The notes under the pieces were generated by a model that saw nothing but the letters and a program-made list of their open reading frames with translations, was not told where the DNA came from and made no database searches. 16,784 bases of DNA from Candidatus Jordarchaeales archaeon. Lineage in GTDB: Archaea > Asgardarchaeota > Jordiarchaeia > Jordiarchaeales > Freyrarchaeaceae. The position numbers and the translations under genes were made by a program. Of this stretch, positions 9,014 to 16,569 are shown piece by piece. Numbering within the stretch: position 1 is the stretch's first letter; each line of letters begins with the position of its first letter. Location: NCBI GenBank assembly GCA_038858525.1, contig JAWCFL010000036.1, positions 1-16,784 of the forward strand, in the 5' to 3' direction.

Positions 9014-9135
9014 CGTTTCTACTTGAAACACAGTTCCCTAAGGAAAAAAGTAGGTTTTAAAGGAAGAGTATTTTCGTTTTATCAAAAATAAGTAATTTCG
9101 GAGAAAGAAAGGGTCTTCAGTTGAGAGGGGTAGGT

Positions 9136-10083
9136 ATGCGTGTTAAACAGATGAATATTAAGGGTGGCATGAGCGCCCTAGAGATCATAGAAGAGATGGC
9201 GGGGGCAGGGGTTTTTATAGCGGGGCGCCTAGCAAGGGCGGTTCGTGTGCTTTCAGAGATGATTGGTAACGAGGATGTGACTGTGTTTTTCGGAGCGGCG
9301 GGTGCACTAGTTCCTGCTGGACTTGGAAGGATAATAGCTGAAATGATTTATGACGGATTCGTTGATGTTGTCGTAACTACCGGGGCTAATATAACTCATG
9401 ACCTTATAGAGGCGTTTGGTGGAGCGCATGTAAAAGATATTAAAGGAGAGGACGACAAGTTAAGGGAAAAGGGCGTCAACAGAATTTTTGATTCGTATGT
9501 TTCAGATGATGCTTTCGTGGTTTTTGAAAAAAGAATTCAAGAAATATTAATGGACATTCCCGTTGAGAAGAGAGAGAAGGGGATTCCGGTTTACGAGTTG
9601 CTTAGGGAAGTAGGATTACGCGTAAACTATAAGCATTCGTTTGTTAAAGCGGCTGCCGAGACCGGTGTGCCAATTTTTTGTCCTGCAATAACGGATTCAA
9701 TTTTGGGATTGCAAATGTGGCTTTTCTCTCAAAAAAACGCATTGAGGCTAGATGTACTAGAGGACCTTCACAAAATAGTGAGTATGGCTTATGAGTCGAA
9801 AAAAGCTGGAGCATTTATTTTGGGGGGTGGCGTGCCGAAAAACCATATTTTACAAGCCATGCTACTAACAGGTAGGGGGTTTGACTATGCGGTTCAGATA
9901 ACACTTGACAGGCCAGAGTCGGGAGGGCTGAGCGGAGCGACGTTAAGTGAGGCAAAATCTTGGGGGAAAGTCGCGAAGAACGCGGTTACGGTTGATGTAA
10001 TAGCAGACGTAACGATAACATTACCATTAATTTTCTCGGCACTCAAGGAAATTCTAGGAGGGAAAAAGACTACAACGGATTAA
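9136..10083 (+). CDS. dys: Deoxyhypusine synthase
   Basis: GALVPAGL, VTTGANITHD, GVNRIFD, PIFCPAITDS, LGGGVPKNH, GGLSGATLSEAKSWGK (catalytic Lys position intact). Start is ATG 9136 or TTG 9121. Confidence 0.93.
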   Translation: MRVKQMNIKGGMSALEIIEEMAGAGVFIAGRLARAVRVLSEMIGNEDVTVFFGAAGALVPAGLGRIIAEMIYDGFVDVVVTTGANITHDLIEAFGGAHVKDIKGEDDKLREKGVNRIFDSYVSDDAFVVFEKRIQEILMDIPVEKREKGIPVYELLREVGLRVNYKHSFVKAAAETGVPIFCPAITDSILGLQMWLFSQKNALRLDVLEDLHKIVSMAYESKKAGAFILGGGVPKNHILQAMLLTGRGFDYAVQITLDRPESGGLSGATLSEAKSWGKVAKNAVTVDVIADVTITLPLIFSALKEILGGKKTTTD

Positions 10084-10099
10084 GTCTAGGAGGAAAGCG

Positions 10100-11416
10100 T
10101 TATGGAAAATGCCAGGGGTCAAGTAGCTTTATTGGAGGAGCATTTTTTCTGTTAAGGCGACTGTAGGGTCTCGTTAAGTGGCGCTGAGCTCTTGGTGGCG
10201 GAATATATATGGACTCGGTTATTCTACGAGCGAGCTCAACGGTAACTTTTTCTGCAAAAATTTTTTTACCGCATTTCTTACATTTGAATCCCTGCCCTCT
10301 TCCTGCAGATGAAGTTCTTTTACCGCAGTTAGGACAAATAGGGTTATGAAGTTTTAAATTGGGAGCTAGCTTAACTATTTCAATCTTTTCTAAATTAAGA
10401 GTTTTTGGGTGCGATAAGGAAGGCGGGCGGATCCCGCCATAAACACGAACCACGTCTCCTGGAATTAAGTCAGATATAACCCATCTAAAGGAGCCTGCTG
10501 GCTCATATGCAGCGCAATTTATTTCTCCCGTATCGTCACGTATTTTAACGAATACGTGACCGCCTTGAGAGACCACTGGCTTAGATGAAACTACGCCTTC
10601 TATTACTGCTGACATGTAAGGGTGAGCGTTACATATTTTACGCTTAACACGCAAGTGAGCATCCGTTCCTTGATTTGAACGAAAAATAACCCAGCGCTCT
10701 ATTGGCTCATGAACTTTCACCAGCTTATACGCTTTAAGCAGAACCTCAGGAGACTCGCCGCGAACACCATATAGAACAGGGTCCGGGCCGTGCGGTGCTA
10801 TTAGAACTCTGTCATCGTCTATATTGTTGAACGTGTCAGGACTTGTTAATCGGTCCATTTCTTTTACTGATTCGATATCAATCGCTCTTGGTTTCCCCCA
10901 ATTTTCAGGTACTCGGTAAGTAATTAATTCGTAGGTATAGTCGTCCTCTAATGTTTCTCCTATAGCGGCAAGTGCACCTATAATTCCTCTTCCTTCCTTA
11001 AACGTGTGTATTTCGGCACCACATTTTTCAGCAATTCGAAAAGCTTCATTTAAACTGACCATGTCGCACATGGCTTGTTCTGACAGCCTTCTAAGCTCTG
11101 CGGGAATATCACCCAGTAAAAAGGCCACTCCAGGATCTGTTCCGGAAAATGAGAGGTCCGCAAGGCGACTTACCTCCTTTAAAACGAGTTCTTTAATGAC
11201 GTCGACTGCTTTCTTTTCCACCTCGAGCCTTAGGCAAACCGCGCCGTTTCCTCTAGTTTTAAATGGAACGTTTGGATTTAGCCTTATCAGGAGAGGATAA
11301 TCTCTGAATTTAACTTTAAGCTTTGAGAGAAGCTCAACTAACACTGCACAAAGATGAGTTGTGCATCCTCCTCTTGGCGAATCTGTATCGTCAAGTCCTA
11401 TATTAAGGGTAAGCAC
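10100..11416 (-). CDS. tiaS: tRNA(Ile2) 2-agmatinylcytidine synthetase
   Basis: IGLDDTDS...GCTT, RLNPNVPFKTRGNGAV, GRGIIGALAA, PHGPDPVLYGVRG, SNQGTD, OB fold GGHVF...AAYEP, zinc ribbon CPNC...CKKC. Start set at GTG 11416 (GGAGG SD upstream). Confidence 0.95.
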   Translation of the reverse strand: MLTLNIGLDDTDSPRGGCTTHLCAVLVELLSKLKVKFRDYPLLIRLNPNVPFKTRGNGAVCLRLEVEKKAVDVIKELVLKEVSRLADLSFSGTDPGVAFLLGDIPAELRRLSEQAMCDMVSLNEAFRIAEKCGAEIHTFKEGRGIIGALAAIGETLEDDYTYELITYRVPENWGKPRAIDIESVKEMDRLTSPDTFNNIDDDRVLIAPHGPDPVLYGVRGESPEVLLKAYKLVKVHEPIERWVIFRSNQGTDAHLRVKRKICNAHPYMSAVIEGVVSSKPVVSQGGHVFVKIRDDTGEINCAAYEPAGSFRWVISDLIPGDVVRVYGGIRPPSLSHPKTLNLEKIEIVKLAPNLKLHNPICPNCGKRTSSAGRGQGFKCKKCGKKIFAEKVTVELARRITESIYIPPPRAQRHLTRPYSRLNRKNAPPIKLLDPWHFP

Positions 11417-11753
11417 AGTTATTACTCCTCCAAGCATTAAGACCATAGTCGTTATTAATCATTCCACTCAGTCTTTATGAGGACTCGCAAGTAAACATTA
11501 TATCTATAACAACTACAGCCAAAAGTAACTTGTCAAAGTTTCCATAATGAATTAGAGAGGTAACGGATATATTTTCTTTCCTTGGAGAAACTACTTTGAA
11601 CGTGCATCTGTATGGTCTACGTGCGAATTCTCTAAATGTTTTTCATTAAAATAATTAATGAGCCAACTCGTCCATCTGTTTATTTTAAACGCGATTGCCA
11701 CAAAAGAAAAGCAAAAATAAAGAAAGGGGGTTCTTAAAAGAAGAAAGTTAAGT

Positions 11754-11993
11754 TTATGGTTTTCCCTCAGCTACTATGAGGGTTAAGGTCGAAACTACAC
11801 CCTTTATTCGTCTTATTTGCCAGATAACAGTTTCCTTCAGTTTTTCCATAGATTCTGTTTCTACTTTGATCAAGATGTCGTAGACACCATACAGAATATA
11901 TGCTTCAACCACACCCTCTATTTGGGAGACGGCCTTCAAAACGGTTTCTTCATTCGCTGGTTCCGTATTAACAAGCACAAAGGCGGTAGGCAC
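11754..11993 (-). CDS. Stand-alone Lrp/AsnC ligand-binding (RAM) domain protein, no HTH
   Basis: PTAFVLVN...V.EAY.LYG.YDILIKV...IRRI.GV.ST.TLIV. Probable start GTG 11993 after a GGTGA SD; the ORF track gives 12035. Confidence 0.88.
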   Translation of the reverse strand: MPTAFVLVNTEPANEETVLKAVSQIEGVVEAYILYGVYDILIKVETESMEKLKETVIWQIRRIKGVVSTLTLIVAEGKP

Positions 11994-12085
11994 ACTATCA
12001 CCTACACTTACTGCTACTATTTCTTTACTTTTCACGTTCCTTATATAGATGTTTTCGGTATTATCCTCCTGAAGGAGGACTCACT

Positions 12086-12601
12086 TTGAAGGGAAAAAGG
12101 GGACAAAAAATAATAATTTATCATGAGGGAACATGTGACCCTGCCAAATGCACTGCTTTAAAACTCGCCCGCTTGGGAAAAGCAATTATAGTTAGGAGAA
12201 TTACTGATATTCCTTCTAACTTTTTAATTCTGAACCCACTTTCACAGACTGCTTTATCTCTCATGGATAAAGATGTTTTTGAGATGAGAGGACTAATAGC
12301 TGTCGATTGCTCTTGGAACAGGCTAAGTAACGTCTTTCGTAACATAAAGGGGGTGCACAGGGCGTTGCCATATTTAATTGCAGCTAACCCAGTGAACTAT
12401 GGGGTTCCAACTAAGCTTAGCACAGCAGAAGCTATTGGGGCAGCATTATACATACTTGGGTTTAAGGAGGAGGCGAAAGGTATTCTTGAGTGTTTCAAGT
12501 GGGGGCCGCACTTCTTAACGTTAAACTGCGAGCTGCTCGAGGCTTACTTTTCAGCAAGAAATAGTGCTGAGGTTATCAGTATTCAGAAAGAATTTATTTG
12601 A
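12086..12601 (+). CDS. tsr3: rRNA aminocarboxypropyltransferase Tsr3 (DUF367)
   Basis: CDPAKCTALKL, LNP, DCSWN, RALPYLIAANPVNYG.P.KLSTAEA, FKWGPHFL.LN. TTG start with GGAGG SD. Confidence 0.95.
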   Translation: MKGKRGQKIIIYHEGTCDPAKCTALKLARLGKAIIVRRITDIPSNFLILNPLSQTALSLMDKDVFEMRGLIAVDCSWNRLSNVFRNIKGVHRALPYLIAANPVNYGVPTKLSTAEAIGAALYILGFKEEAKGILECFKWGPHFLTLNCELLEAYFSARNSAEVISIQKEFI

Positions 12602-12998
12602 GGCGGCGTGCCAGGAGTAATCCATCTTCTGTTGGGAGACCGTTGTTACCAACGGCCTCTTGGCGGCATTCGGCTATGCGCCCTACCCGCCGCCTCCCGT
12701 GGGCGTCATCGGCAGCCTATTTGGGCTTGCACCCCCGAGGATGGCCGTTTCAACGGTCCCACCTGCATCCTCAGCGGGTTATCTCGGCGCTTGTCGCCAA
12801 GCGCCTTCTCGGGAGCCCCTCAGCCGCTTCATCGTCATCCCGCAAGTGGACGTGTCGTTTGCAGCCTTTTCACCGGTTTCTGCTCCAGAGCCAAGCCTCT
12901 CGGCTTGCGCCTCGCGGCGCTCGGGTCCCACGATGGTGGATGGAATTTCCTCAGCGCTCTATTGGAGCGCCGTGAGCCGCCCTCTGGCTCGCCGCCTC
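12600..12998 (-). ncRNA. rnpB: RNase P RNA, archaeal type A, about 399 nt
   Basis: GC-rich island. On the minus strand: P1 GAGGCGGCGAGCCAG/CUGGCACGCCGCCUC; P2 GGCGGC/GCCGCC; P3 GCGCUC/GAGCGC; P4 GAGGAAAUUCCAUC with AACAGAAGAUGGAUUA; P8 GCGCC-GCGA-GGCGC; P9 AAGCC-GAGA-GGCUU; CR motifs AGCAGAAAC and UGAAACGG; GCAAGCCCAAAUAGG; P6 CGUGGG/CCCACG; L15 GGUA; P19 GAGGCCGUUG-GUAA-CAACGGUCUC. Confidence 0.97.
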
Positions 12999-13020
12999 TT
13001 AATACTGATGGAGAATACTT

Positions 13021-13039
13021 GAAATTAAATTTTTCTTTG
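13021..13039 (-). promoter_or_regulatory. Putative BRE/TATA promoter of rnpB
   Basis: The minus strand reads AAAGAAAAA-TTTAATTT, about 25-30 nt upstream of the P1 5' end. Confidence 0.5.
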
Positions 13040-13471
13040 TCAGGTGATTCGCCTAGCTTTAGGGAAGAAATTTATTAGAGTGCCCTTTTTCGCTAGCCCA
13101 CATCCGATGAAGTCGTTTCTCGACTTGTCTTTCACTATAACGTAGCCTTCAAAGTCCGGAGGAATTGGTATGTTTTCTCCTTTAATCCACCTTTCAGCTA
13201 GTGTGCCATCTATTTCTACTACGTTTTTCTTGGCACTCTCGCCGACCATTTGGGATCCTTCAACAGATAGTCTTATTCCGTCAGGCATTAGTGTTGCAAA
13301 GTAAACGCCTACTGAGAGCACGTTCTGATTATCTATCTTCTTGAGTAAGTCTTCTGAAGCTGCACGTATCCTTCTTTTTCCTGAAAGAAGAAGTCTCACC
13401 CCGTTTATTTTCGGTATACCAAATTGAGCTTGAAGCTGGCGCCATATATTGTCTTCGAAGTTTTCGTCCAA
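13040..13471 (-). CDS. PUA-domain partner of NOL1/NOP2/RsmF methyltransferases (COG3270/Nip7-like)
   Basis: GVYFA...IRLSVEGSQMVG..AKKNVVE...W.KGE...GYVIV...IGCG...INFFPKARR; lies directly downstream of the methyltransferase. Confidence 0.85.
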   Translation of the reverse strand: MDENFEDNIWRQLQAQFGIPKINGVRLLLSGKRRIRAASEDLLKKIDNQNVLSVGVYFATLMPDGIRLSVEGSQMVGESAKKNVVEIDGTLAERWIKGENIPIPPDFEGYVIVKDKSRNDFIGCGLAKKGTLINFFPKARRIT

Positions 13472-13476
13472 ATTAT

Positions 13477-14434
13477 TTACCTCTCCTTTCTTATTCTAGC
13501 TATGAAGAAGGCATCAGTGTAGTTATCATGTGGATATATTCGCATGCAGTACTTTAAATCTGGATGAAATGTTTTTTCTTTGTATTCTGTTAAACCGGGA
13601 TGGAAACGGATGCCTTTGATTTCGAAGTACTCGACGCGAGCCTTTCCTTCCTTTGAGAGAAGATAATTAACGACTGCCTCGTTTTCGAATGGATGGATGC
13701 TGCATGTTGAGTAAACTAAGATTCCGCCTGGTTTTAACATTTTGAATCCGGCGATTAGAAGTCCTCTTTGAAGAACGTGAAGTGACTTGACTCTTTCTTC
13801 CGTAAAGTTGGATGGAAATTTACTTAGAAAGTGTCCTGAGGAGGAGCAGGGGGCGTCGACAAGAACTTTGTCAAAATGGTCTTTGATGATTGATGGAAGT
13901 TTTCGTCCATCAAACATAGTTACCGCGGTGTTTATAACTCCGCAGAGCTGCAAGTTAAAACCTAGGGAGGATATCCTTTTGAGGGAGACGTCGTTGGCTA
14001 TTATGGCACCCTTGTTTTTCATGAGCTGAGCTATTTGCGTCGTCTTTGAGCCTGGAGCTGCGCACATGTCTAAAACGTAATCTTCTGGCTTCGGCTCCAA
14101 AAATAAGGGAGGAATCATGCTTCCTCCTTCTTGAATGTACACGTAACCTAATGCACGTTCATATGCGATGTAAGAAAGAGGGTTTTCTCTAGGCTCGAGC
14201 ACCCTGAAACCGTCATCGAAACCAGCTTAGGGGGGAGAGCTTCACGTTTCTTTCTTCCAATCGCTTTAATACTTCAAGTTTAGGCTTTTTCAAGGTGTTT
14301 AACCTAACAAAGAATTCAGGAAATTTTTCTGTGCAAGCGAAAACCTCGCTGGATTCTTCCCCGAGAAGAGAAACATAAAGCTTAGCGATTTCAGGTGGAA
14401 GCCCACATGCTTGATGAACGTTCAATTCACTCAC
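13477..14434 (-). CDS. RsmB/NOP-family RNA m5C methyltransferase, split by a +1 frameshift near 14216-14226 (about 318 aa if joined)
   Basis: The 14213-14434 ORF carries the N-terminal VRLNTLK motif. The 13477-14220 frame carries YIQE..SM.PP, VLDMCAAPGSKT, AND, motif IV DAPCSSSG, motif VI YSTCS..P.ENE, and RIYPH...DAFFIA. Both catalytic cysteines are intact. Confidence 0.88.
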
Positions 14435-14443
14435 CCTCTCTGC

Positions 14444-14656
14444 TTAAAGTCCTAGAGAAACTAGGAAAATGTATATTCCGAAGCCGAGACAGGCTGATGC
14501 TATGATGGCTGACATTAAGAGCTTTTTGAAACCTTGTTCTGGGTCTCTTAGAGCGAGTAGAAACCATGCCACAGTAATAAGTCCGATCAGGATTAATACG
14601 TATCCAACCCACACTGGGATATTCCATGGTGCGATGAACAATTTCAGCACCCCCAC
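14444..14656 (-). CDS. Small two-TM membrane protein, 70 aa
   Basis: Two hydrophobic segments linked by LRDPEQGFKK. It sits co-directionally with 8-9 nt gaps on both sides. Confidence 0.75.
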   Translation of the reverse strand: MGVLKLFIAPWNIPVWVGYVLILIGLITVAWFLLALRDPEQGFKKLLMSAIIASACLGFGIYIFLVSLGL

Positions 14657-14664
14657 TATTTAGC

Positions 14665-15360
14665 TTAGATGGATTTTATTTTTCCTTTTCGCGCTAAAAT
14701 GCTTTGAACAAGCATTGATGCGCCCAGGATGGCTGTTGTGCTCGGTAGCACGTTGACGAGGCTTAGAGATAGAATGGCGCCACCTAAGGTTAAGGACAGC
14801 TTAGACCCTTTACTTTCACCCTTGTTTAAAATGTTTCTTCTGGTGTTTAGCACGTATAGTTCTATTTCTTTCATGTTGAGGCGACGGGAAAGCGATTTGA
14901 CTAATTTGTTTTTCTTCCATTTCATTGAGGCTACCGTCATGTGACGCTTAGCTAGGTTATATAGTTGAACCCGTGTAAGTTGGTAAAGCATCTGCTCCTT
15001 TATGCTGAAGGTTTTTGTTATTGGCCTTCCTTCAAGAAGCGCTGAACATGAAAGATAGAGCGTCAGGAGCGCTATCGTGAAGCTTGGAACCGCAACTATT
15101 ATAACGCCCCAAATAACCAGTATTCCAATAGCGATAATTAGGACGGCTACACCATAGAAGAGCAAGTCAACGAACGCGAAGGAGCAAGCTTTTCTAAGGA
15201 CGTAACTTAGCCCTACAAGTGATATTGTCGCCCCAATAGCCATTGTCAGTAAAGATTCATAGGAGACGAAAAAACCAGTAGTTTGCACAAGTAAGCCAAC
15301 TAGCAGAAAAGCCCACATCTGCTTTAGCGGCGTAATTTTTCCATCGATTTTTCCCCACAT
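14665..15360 (-). CDS. Hypothetical multi-pass membrane protein with a basic soluble loop
   Basis: About 4 N-terminal TM segments, a Lys/Arg-rich helical loop (about aa 111-187) and C-terminal hydrophobic segments. GGAGG SD upstream of the ATG. Confidence 0.75.
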   Translation of the reverse strand: MWGKIDGKITPLKQMWAFLLVGLLVQTTGFFVSYESLLTMAIGATISLVGLSYVLRKACSFAFVDLLFYGVAVLIIAIGILVIWGVIIVAVPSFTIALLTLYLSCSALLEGRPITKTFSIKEQMLYQLTRVQLYNLAKRHMTVASMKWKKNKLVKSLSRRLNMKEIELYVLNTRRNILNKGESKGSKLSLTLGGAILSLSLVNVLPSTTAILGASMLVQSILARKGKIKSI

Positions 15361-15836
15361 TCCTCCAACCCCAAATTAAACAATTTTTCCGTTCAAGCAA
15401 CCAATGAGGAAGCATGAGAAACTAAAAAAAGGTTTCCTGCCAGCTTATTCAAAAGAGCTTATACTAAACAACCCCAGCTATTTTAAGATGGAATAAAACG
15501 ACGCATATAAAGGTTTTCATGAGTAAACCACTAAATTCGCCTTAGCCAAAAGAAAGTTGCATATCAATATTTTGAGCCAAGAGCTTGCATGCCATTTTAT
15601 CTCCTTTAATGCAGCTTTTATTTTGCCAGAACTGTTCAGGTGTGTCAAAAAGGGGCCTTAGATTTTTGACGGTTAAAACCAGAATAAGGATTGGTTTTGC
15701 TGTTCCTGAAGGACATTAAAAGAGATAAAAATAAAAGAGTGAAGCAAAAAGCCGGCTATCTTGCAAAGGTTGGTTTTAAGCATTACGAAGTTTAGATACG
15801 TAAAGTTCAAATAAATCAAAGGCCAAAGGAGTAATT

Positions 15837-16140
15837 GGGCTCCCTTATCGAGGACTGGGCCGACTGCCCAAGCGGGGTGGATGAGGCTTGGAGCAAGGAG
15901 GGAGCTACATTATTGGGGGAGACCGCCGCGCAAAACCCTACTTGAACGGACTTTCACCGAGAAAAAGGGAAGGTATAAAACTTCCGGGATGAGGTGGAGT
16001 TTACCCAAGTAGGGGACAGCGGCTTAGAAACGCCAGGTATGGCTCCCGGGTTTGAGAGCATGGTTGAGGGGGGCGAATGCTCCACTATGAAACCATGTGT
16101 TAGTTACCTCGGGAACACTGGCGTTTCTCCCCCTAATGTT
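15837..16140 (+). ncRNA. Three-hairpin box H/ACA pseudouridylation guide RNA (predicted)
   Basis: Three stem-pocket-stem-K-turn units. ACA boxes lie at 15907-15909, 16016-16018 and 16115-16117, which is 14, 15 and 16 nt from the 3' pocket start. The G-U pairs are consistent only with the + strand. Folded by eye. Confidence 0.8.
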
Positions 16141-16165
16141 CCATTTATTATCTTCCGAAAGATGA

Positions 16166-16176
16166 GCTGTTTTTAG
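16166..16176 (+). terminator. Possible oligo-T terminator after the structured RNA
   Basis: GCTGTTTTTAG follows a short AUCUU/AAGAU hairpin. Weak evidence. Confidence 0.3.
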
Positions 16177-16251
16177 TGGGGGGACAGAAATTTTAAAAGC
16201 TTCTAAGATTGTTAGGGTTTAGGAGAAGGAGCGATGTAGGTGAGGGCGACA

Positions 16252-16569
16252 TTGCCTAGGAAGAGAGATAAGGACCATGAGGTAATTGAAGTTAAGGACG
16301 TGCGAGTGCCTATGGAGGGGGAGATTTTAGGAGTAGTTGAAAGGATGGTTGGCAACGATAGGCTTATTGTTAACTGTACTGATGGGAAGACGCGATTGGC
16401 GAGAATAAGAGGCAAATTTAAGAAGAAGGTTTGGATAAGGAATGGCGATGTTGTTCTCGTGGCGCCTTGGGATTTTCAAGATGATCGTGCCGATGTTGTG
16501 TGGAGATACAATGAGGGAGAGGTTAAGTGGCTTAAAAATAGAGGGTACTTGAACGGGTTAAATGTTTAA
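16252..16569 (+). CDS. eif1a: Translation initiation factor aIF-1A
   Basis: VRVP.EGEILGVVERMVGNDRLIVNCTDGKTRLARIRGKFKKKVWIRNGDVVLVAPWDFQ...DVVWRY. Start is probably TTG 16252 after a GGTGA SD; the ORF track gives GTG 16240. Confidence 0.96.
   Translation: MPRKRDKDHEVIEVKDVRVPMEGEILGVVERMVGNDRLIVNCTDGKTRLARIRGKFKKKVWIRNGDVVLVAPWDFQDDRADVVWRYNEGEVKWLKNRGYLNGLNV

Follow-up and report, generated by a model that had tools for sequence, protein, structure and literature searches.

The gene for an RNA m5C methyltransferase in the Asgard archaeal family Freyrarchaeaceae carries one extra base at UGG UUU C, and its full enzyme very probably depends on a programmed +1 ribosomal frameshift, in which tRNA-Phe would slip from UUU to UUC much as at the PA-X site of influenza A. 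The frame break is real and inherited. That the two frames are joined by the ribosome and not by RNA processing is something we infer from sequence comparison, as are the exact codon, the efficiency and the purpose of the shift.

In the 16,784-nt stretch of DNA analysed here (the window), the gene lies on the minus strand at 14434-13477. Frame 0 opens with GTG 14434 and ends at TGA 14215-14213 after 73 aa, with the C-terminal end LSWFR; at the break it reads CTA AGC TGG TTT CGA TGA. In relatives, the ORF1 start is preceded by a purine-rich Shine-Dalgarno-like sequence. The +1 frame is closed by TAA 14229-14227 and then stays open for 249 codons down to 13477. Removal of one T yields a 318-aa read-through with the catalytic domain at its end and the junction SWFDDGFR. 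The preliminary description of this locus gave an account of both frames, the N-terminal stop and the upstream +1 TAA which proved accurate when the frames were recomputed, and its read-through of about 318 aa with both catalytic cysteines is borne out by the length and by the invariance of C196 and C244 in 69 homologues. It had also confined the shift to the 11 nt between the two stops, outside the nearby C6 run. The exclusion of the C6 run stands, as no single-base loss there restores the frame, but the interval was drawn too narrowly, since single-base loss at any of 17 positions, from 14229 to 14213, does so. The features are collected in Table 1.

Table 1. Features of the frameshifted methyltransferase gene and its partner gene, in window coordinates
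Feature	Positions	Strand	Remark
ORF1, frame 0, N-terminal 73 codons	14213..14434	-	First two thirds of the RsmF_N domain
ORF2, +1 frame, 247 codons	13477..14220	-	Remainder of the N-terminal domain plus the complete catalytic domain
Conserved shift-site motif YTR RGY TGG TTT C	14218..14230	-	
Predicted slip site UUU-C	14218..14221	-	P-site tRNA-Phe would move from UUU 14221-14219 to UUC 14220-14218
Frame-0 A-site codon CGA, then UGA stop	14213..14218	-	Stop in 2/7 lineages
33 codons from the shift site to the sole conserved in-frame ATG	14119..14217	-	No conserved start codon
7-bp hairpin with internal ATG 14118-14116 in the loop	14108..14127	-	Preceding purine-rich run in the stem
Cys196, motif IV (DAPC)	13846..13848	-	Invariant among 69 homologues
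Cys244, motif VI (STC)	13702..13704	-	Invariant among 69 homologues
Partner gene, RsmF-type PUA-like domain PF13636	13040..13471	-	5 nt behind the methyltransferase
Junction peptide of the read-through in this species, LSPLSWFDDGFR			

An inherited frame break in the Freyrarchaeaceae

The same +1 break is found in all 27 records that cover the junction, which represent seven Freyrarchaeaceae lineages at 62-90% nucleotide identity; some of the 27 may share samples, and the seven lineages stand for one origin, not for independent events. In one genome the contig ends before the shift site. All junctions read YTR RGY TGG TTT C with an identical +1 offset. Six further assemblies of this species (JGI, Logan) keep the TTT, and six other lineages (JGI, ENA, NCBI, Logan) have the identical break. 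We take the sampled family, which contains Ca. Freyrarchaeum guaymaensis, to be the Freyrarchaeaceae as the name is used in 10.64898/2026.10.13.758758. No intact Freyrarchaeaceae copy was found among the records examined, and the closest database proteins are all fragments of 213-241 aa with no in-frame copy among them; these Freyrarchaeaceae entries are probably truncated. Longer proteins that include ORF1 were sought and none turned up, a result of little weight. The preliminary description had named a continuous ORF in close relatives, with no conserved slippery site, as what would refute the shift, and the reverse was found, with all Freyrarchaeaceae keeping both the break and UGG UUU C. 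The 13-nt motif also has exact matches in genomes of the sister family, but these lie in unrelated contexts with no frameshift and were set aside as coincidental.

Outside the family the gene is whole. Across 41 Asgard genomes the best-matching open frame measures 318-383 aa, the Freyrarchaeaceae being the exception at 249-251 aa, and the gene is intact both in the nearest relatives, the Hermodarchaeia, and in the sister family. A quick maximum-likelihood tree places the frameshifted genes in one clade (SH-aLRT 99) whose sister is formed by the intact Hermodarchaeia genes (support 99). The single frameshifted clade shows that the extra base had one origin, in the Freyrarchaeaceae ancestor.

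Both parts of the gene are constrained. Across the seven lineages pN is 0.23 against a pS of 0.70 in ORF1, and 0.14 against 0.71 in the catalytic part of ORF2. The 33 start-less codons give 0.19 against 0.70 in the +1 frame, as opposed to 0.36 against 0.18 when the same codons (14119-14217) are read in frame 0, and they include Y99, Q101 and S105, which are invariant across the family (69 homologues). Judged by these substitution patterns, both frames are translated and under purifying selection. Since this selection extends over ORF1, the 33 codons and ORF2, it argues against a pseudogene as well as against separately translated halves. Several single-base deletions would repair the gene and none has become fixed in any sampled lineage despite near-saturated synonymous sites, which suggests that the shifted state is an advantage or, at the least, does no harm.

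No gap is needed to align the read-through with intact homologues, L-S-W-F-D-D-G-F standing against L-P-W-Y/F-x-x-G-F. Scored with an HMM of 102 intact homologues in four frameshifted genes, removal of 1 nt came out ahead of removals of 4-61 nt and of a -2 re-read in every case, by a margin of 5 bits or more. Offsets 9, 13 and 14 receive tied scores, and the HMM does not separate a shift at UUU-C from one a codon later. The frame overlap has the site at its 5′ end; a +1-frame stop lies two codons upstream, and both flanks are coding sequence.

The probable shift site, its surroundings and the tRNAs of the lineage

Among the seven lineage representatives, no other invariant stretch of the gene is as long as GCTGGTTTC (9 nt, the next being 5), though Trp and Phe force part of this invariance; one further allele alters the C of GCTGGTTTC and leaves TGGTTTC still invariant. 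TTTC is present in 7/7 lineages, although pS is ~0.7 elsewhere in the gene. The change from UUU to UUC is the sole cognate re-pairing between the two stops, and in this species the shift has to precede UGA 14215. Directly behind UUU, five lineages have the codon CGA, one has CGG and one CAG. No Arg codon of the genome is used less often than CGA (4.9% of Arg codons), and CGG is the second rarest (5.7%); CAG is a common codon in this genome. After UUU, the frame-0 tail runs for 1-14 codons, depending on the lineage. The E-site codon is UGG in 7/7, so that the site departs from the UCC/YCC subtype of PA-X and PLEKHM2. Pro precedes Trp in 82 of the 102 intact homologues and is replaced by AGC or GGY in the frameshifted genes, a change that may form part of a nucleotide signal.

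These data modify the slippage motif proposed earlier. UUU_CGN had been named as the site, and UUU-C is indeed kept in 7/7 lineages and CGN in 6/7, but one lineage has CAG and the E-site UGG is unlike the UCC of PA-X. A slow CGA codon had been offered as a contributor; it cannot be essential, since CGG and CAG also occur after UUU, in two of the seven lineages. The UGA stop behind CGA was dropped as a site element, as its presence in 2/7 lineages only shows that it is not part of the shift signal. Reinitiation at GTG 14202 is poorly supported, this GTG being private to the species. An earlier in-frame UUU CCU (KFP) within ORF1 of this species, at 14309-14314 (-), is not conserved, and a slip there would run into +1-frame stops.

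No conserved stimulatory structure was found close downstream of the site (pS 0.78 over codons 4-12; covariation term +0.29), and inspection revealed no RF2-like internal Shine-Dalgarno sequence before it. The upstream +1-frame stop, present as TAA, TAG or TGA in all lineages, was rejected as a signal, as 9 of 50 comparable columns do likewise. The most stable local structure of the gene is the hairpin at 14108-14127 (mean z -2.0 to -2.6). Its synonymous positions are paired at 13 of 14 sites in frameshifted genes versus 10 of 26 in intact ones; covariation in this hairpin is not significant and not above shuffles. The hairpin may block internal initiation at the purine-rich ATG, a suggestion that the pairing counts raise, and shared ancestry could equally explain the pairing.

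Loss of frame-keeping factors was considered as a cause of the break and discarded: MBF1, Trm5 and Taw1 are present, and Taw3 was found neither in frameshifted nor in intact-gene genomes. Five Jordarchaeia genomes, one of them complete, yielded no Taw3 (PF02676), while Taw1 was found in four of the five and Trm5 was also found; the wyosine pathway of tRNA-Phe may be truncated there. In this genome only 11 tRNA genes are recognisable, nearly all with introns. Genome-wide tRNA scans did not find genes for tRNA-Phe and tRNA-Trp, and the tRNAs of the family are heavily interrupted; Freyrarchaeaceae have the highest tRNA intron load of the Asgard families (10.64898/2026.10.13.758758). Scans of the genome for other +1 genes with UUU-C gave no convincing case, at a low sensitivity, since stricter settings missed the present gene too. 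On another contig of this genome, near 51976 (+), the frames of a MoxR ATPase (287 codons) and a VWA gene overlap, offset by -1, at G GAU UUU CGG UAA, and 52 codons pass without a start. The succession of UUU and CGN there, as in the methyltransferase, hints at a slip-prone tRNA-Phe in this lineage.

The enzyme, its partner gene and the neighbourhood

By its domain and motifs, the gene encodes a NOL1/NOP2/Sun-family RNA m5C methyltransferase. The +1 frame matches PF01189 (E=3e-52) and TIGR00446 above its cut-off, the read-through product reaches 261.8 bits with TIGR00446 (cut-off 210.45), and the PC of motif IV and the TC of motif VI are both in place. Cys244 is the residue which we take, from knowledge of the family, to be the catalytic nucleophile. 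The best PDB matches of the read-through are Nop2 (E=1e-52) and Pyrococcus PH1374/1IXK (E=7e-51). No substrate-specific NCBIfam model reaches its cut-off, those for RsmF, RsmB and archaeal Trm4 all falling far short: the read-through scores 205 bits with the RsmF model NF008898 (cut-off 588) and 252 bits with NF040814, the model for archaeal Trm4 (tRNA m5C48/49; cut-off 550). The Pfam domain RsmF_N spans residues 12-102, and the junction at 71/72 falls inside this one domain. The product shares its domain order and both catalytic cysteines with other NOL1/NOP2/Sun enzymes (Nop2, PH1374/1IXK, RsmF/YebU and archaeal Trm4). In RsmF, which makes 16S m5C1407, the PUA-like domain is fused C-terminally, whereas here it is a separate downstream gene. 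The PF13636 gene also adjoins the intact methyltransferase outside the Freyrarchaeaceae (sister family, Hermodarchaeia and a further family), and its presence beside frameshifted and intact genes supports their orthology.

Next after the PUA gene, and in the same orientation, comes an archaeal RNase P RNA gene (RF00373, 174.6 bits) at 12606-12992 (-); the GC-rich ORFs listed across this RNA gene are not genuine. Just upstream of the methyltransferase, at 14444-14656 (-), is an Ost5-family gene (PF05251, oligosaccharyltransferase subunit 5, E=2e-8), which occupies this place in all Freyrarchaeaceae loci seen. It is followed further upstream, at 14665-15360 (-), by the gene for a membrane-like protein of 231 aa that matches nothing in Pfam or NCBIfam and heads the same gene string throughout the family (229-238 aa). 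The interval 9121-16569 forms an RNA-modification and translation neighbourhood with tiaS, tsr3, RNase P RNA and aIF-1A (from Pfam matches in syntenic loci), together with a deoxyhypusine-synthase-like gene recognised by eye. A GC-rich segment at ~15830-16200 lacks a long ORF, and nothing in Rfam matches it at gathering score.

Proposed mechanism, rival explanations and known systems

In the reading that we favour, ribosomes would start at GTG 14434 and translate ORF1. The majority would terminate 1-14 codons past UGG UUU and release a fragment of 73-86 aa that lacks the catalytic domain. In a minority, tRNA-Phe on the P-site UUU, usually with a rare CGN codon in the A site, would slip by one base to UUC, and these ribosomes would complete an enzyme of 314-319 aa, with the junction SWFDDGFR in this species. 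The extra base arose once, in the Freyrarchaeaceae ancestor, and has been kept since. The likeliest use of such an arrangement would be to keep the level of the enzyme low or tunable. A point against this reading is that a shift of ~1%, as in PA-X and PLEKHM2, would be low for the sole route to an enzyme.

The ribosome could also change frame without the UUU to UUC slip, either one codon later (after CGA, in a Ty3-like manner without re-pairing) or with a four-base tRNA-Phe or tRNA-Trp that has an enlarged anticodon loop, which we consider improbable. The later codon is compatible with the HMM tie at offsets 9, 13 and 14 and with the Arg that comes next in frame 0 in 6/7 lineages, but CGA is unable to re-pair with GAU, and Arg is outside the six commonest residues of that column in the 102 homologues, among which Glu, Ser and Asp are found. 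As for a four-base tRNA, the genes for tRNA-Phe and tRNA-Trp were not found in this family, whose tRNAs are heavily interrupted (10.64898/2026.10.13.758758); such a tRNA would upset ~1,000 in-frame UUU-C sites in long genes, and the genome scan gave no other convincing UUU-C break. Removal of the extra base from the RNA, through a bulge-helix-bulge (BHB) intron of the tRNA type, polymerase slippage or editing, is very unlikely. The alignment to homologues has room for one base only. What speaks for BHB splicing is the top tRNA intron load among Asgard families, together with a loose pattern that would allow a frame-restoring cut of 34 nt in four of the six lineages screened. That cut deletes the near-invariant W, G and F at a cost of ~20 bits, its helices consist mostly of G-U pairs with a pyrimidine bulge and fail in two lineages, and the loose pattern matches 30 of 140 control points as well. 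Under a stricter pattern there is no match at the site in this genome; two sister lineages, and no others, admit a 58-nt cut. A BHB mRNA intron of the cbf5 type was rejected, there being no insert relative to homologues and a weak match that occurs at background rate and is missing in two lineages. Polymerase slippage would need a longer run than three T, and we know of no U-deletion editing in archaea.

A split gene, in which ORF1 and a 213-aa ORF2 (from the internal ATG or GTG 14202) are made separately and then associate, is scarcely credible. ATG 14118 is conserved in 7/7 lineages behind a purine-rich run, and gene callers annotate products of 213-241 aa; yet this Met and the purine run belong to a family motif, EGGSM, 34 codons past the site and inside the hairpin. 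In the +1 frame, purifying selection acts on the 33 codons before ATG 14118, which include residues invariant in the family; no start upstream of that ATG is conserved, and the break falls in the middle of the RsmF_N domain. Almost no weight is left for an assembly error or a recent pseudogene, both of which the preliminary description had listed. The genome was assembled from a metagenome into 63 contigs, but the break is identical in the six more assemblies of the species and the six other lineages, and strong purifying selection with synonymous sites near saturation is at odds with a pseudogene; conservation across seven lineages refutes both.

Beyond the favoured PA-X-like shift, a feedback sensor is conceivable, though we think it unlikely. 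By analogy with autoregulatory frameshifts, the enzyme might methylate a cytosine of tRNA-Phe, of a tRNA-Arg or of the decoding centre in rRNA; tRNAs or ribosomes without that mark would slip more at UUU-C, so that low methylation would give more slippage and more enzyme. The position m5C1407, the RsmF site, lies at the decoding centre (PMC13694986), and in Thermococcus ribosomes m5C sites crowd the A, P and E sites (PMC11344067). The site, the enzyme class and the RsmF-type partner are compatible with feedback and would allow an archaeal counterpart of RF2 and antizyme that reads RNA modification. The question raised is whether an RNA modification enzyme may regulate itself through reading-frame fidelity. 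The short cassette comes with natural variants, having CGA, CGG or CAG, and a nearby stop that is present or absent.

No report of this gene, of Asgard frameshifting or of an archaeal UUU-CGN shift was found in the open literature, at incomplete coverage. The closest likeness of the site is influenza A PA-X, where a P-site slip on UUU_C with CGN in the A site was established by mass spectrometry at ~1% (PMC3498833). The PA-X site is UCC_UUU_CGU, and PA-X-like UUU_CGN occurs in amalgaviruses, fijiviruses and chronic bee paralysis virus (Firth 2012, PMC3498833). The methyltransferase differs in its E-site UGG in place of UCC, and in the A-site CAG of one lineage. In PA-X the shift yields a minor extra protein, whereas here, in a cellular archaeal gene, it is apparently the only route to the full enzyme. 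Human PLEKHM2 shares a conserved UUU_CGN site in a cellular gene, with a +1 shift of ~1.3% at UCC_UUU_CGG (10.1101/2024.08.30.610563); in this vertebrate gene the unshifted product is the main functional protein, while here it would be a fragment without the catalytic domain. The nearest functional parallel is yeast ABP140/TRM140, also an RNA methyltransferase whose catalytic part is reached through a conserved +1 shift, at CUU_AGG_C (Atkins 2016, PMC5009743). It belongs to another enzyme family, its Ty1-type Leu/Arg site is unlike the UGG UUU CGA found here, and it joins two domains, whereas the present shift would fall inside one.

Bacterial RF2 is made through an autoregulatory +1 frameshift at CUU_UGA, and it is alike in that no functional protein arises without a +1 shift and that the product works on the translation machinery. 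The same likeness holds for antizyme, with its autoregulatory +1 frameshift at UCC_UGA (PMC3498833). The site here is not of the RF2 or antizyme type, as a sense codon follows UUU and a stop comes one codon later in 2/7 lineages only. In archaea, -1 recoding has been described for fucA1 of Saccharolobus, chlD of Methanococcales and haloarchaeal virus tail genes (PMC8211752, PMC5009743, PMC3711429), and the tail gene of virus HSTV-2 is predicted to use a shift that is probably +1 (PMC8211752, PMC5009743). As in fucA1 and chlD, two overlapping frames would be joined by ribosomal frameshifting, but those genes shift by -1 on A-rich sites, and +1 is on record only as the prediction for one virus. 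Reviews give only -1 shifts for cellular archaeal genes (PMC8211752, PMC5009743), in contrast to the family-wide +1 seen here. If the favoured reading is true, this housekeeping RNA-modification gene shows the influenza-type slip at UUU-C to operate on the ribosomes of archaea, within the group nearest to eukaryotes, and to supply the main product rather than a side product.
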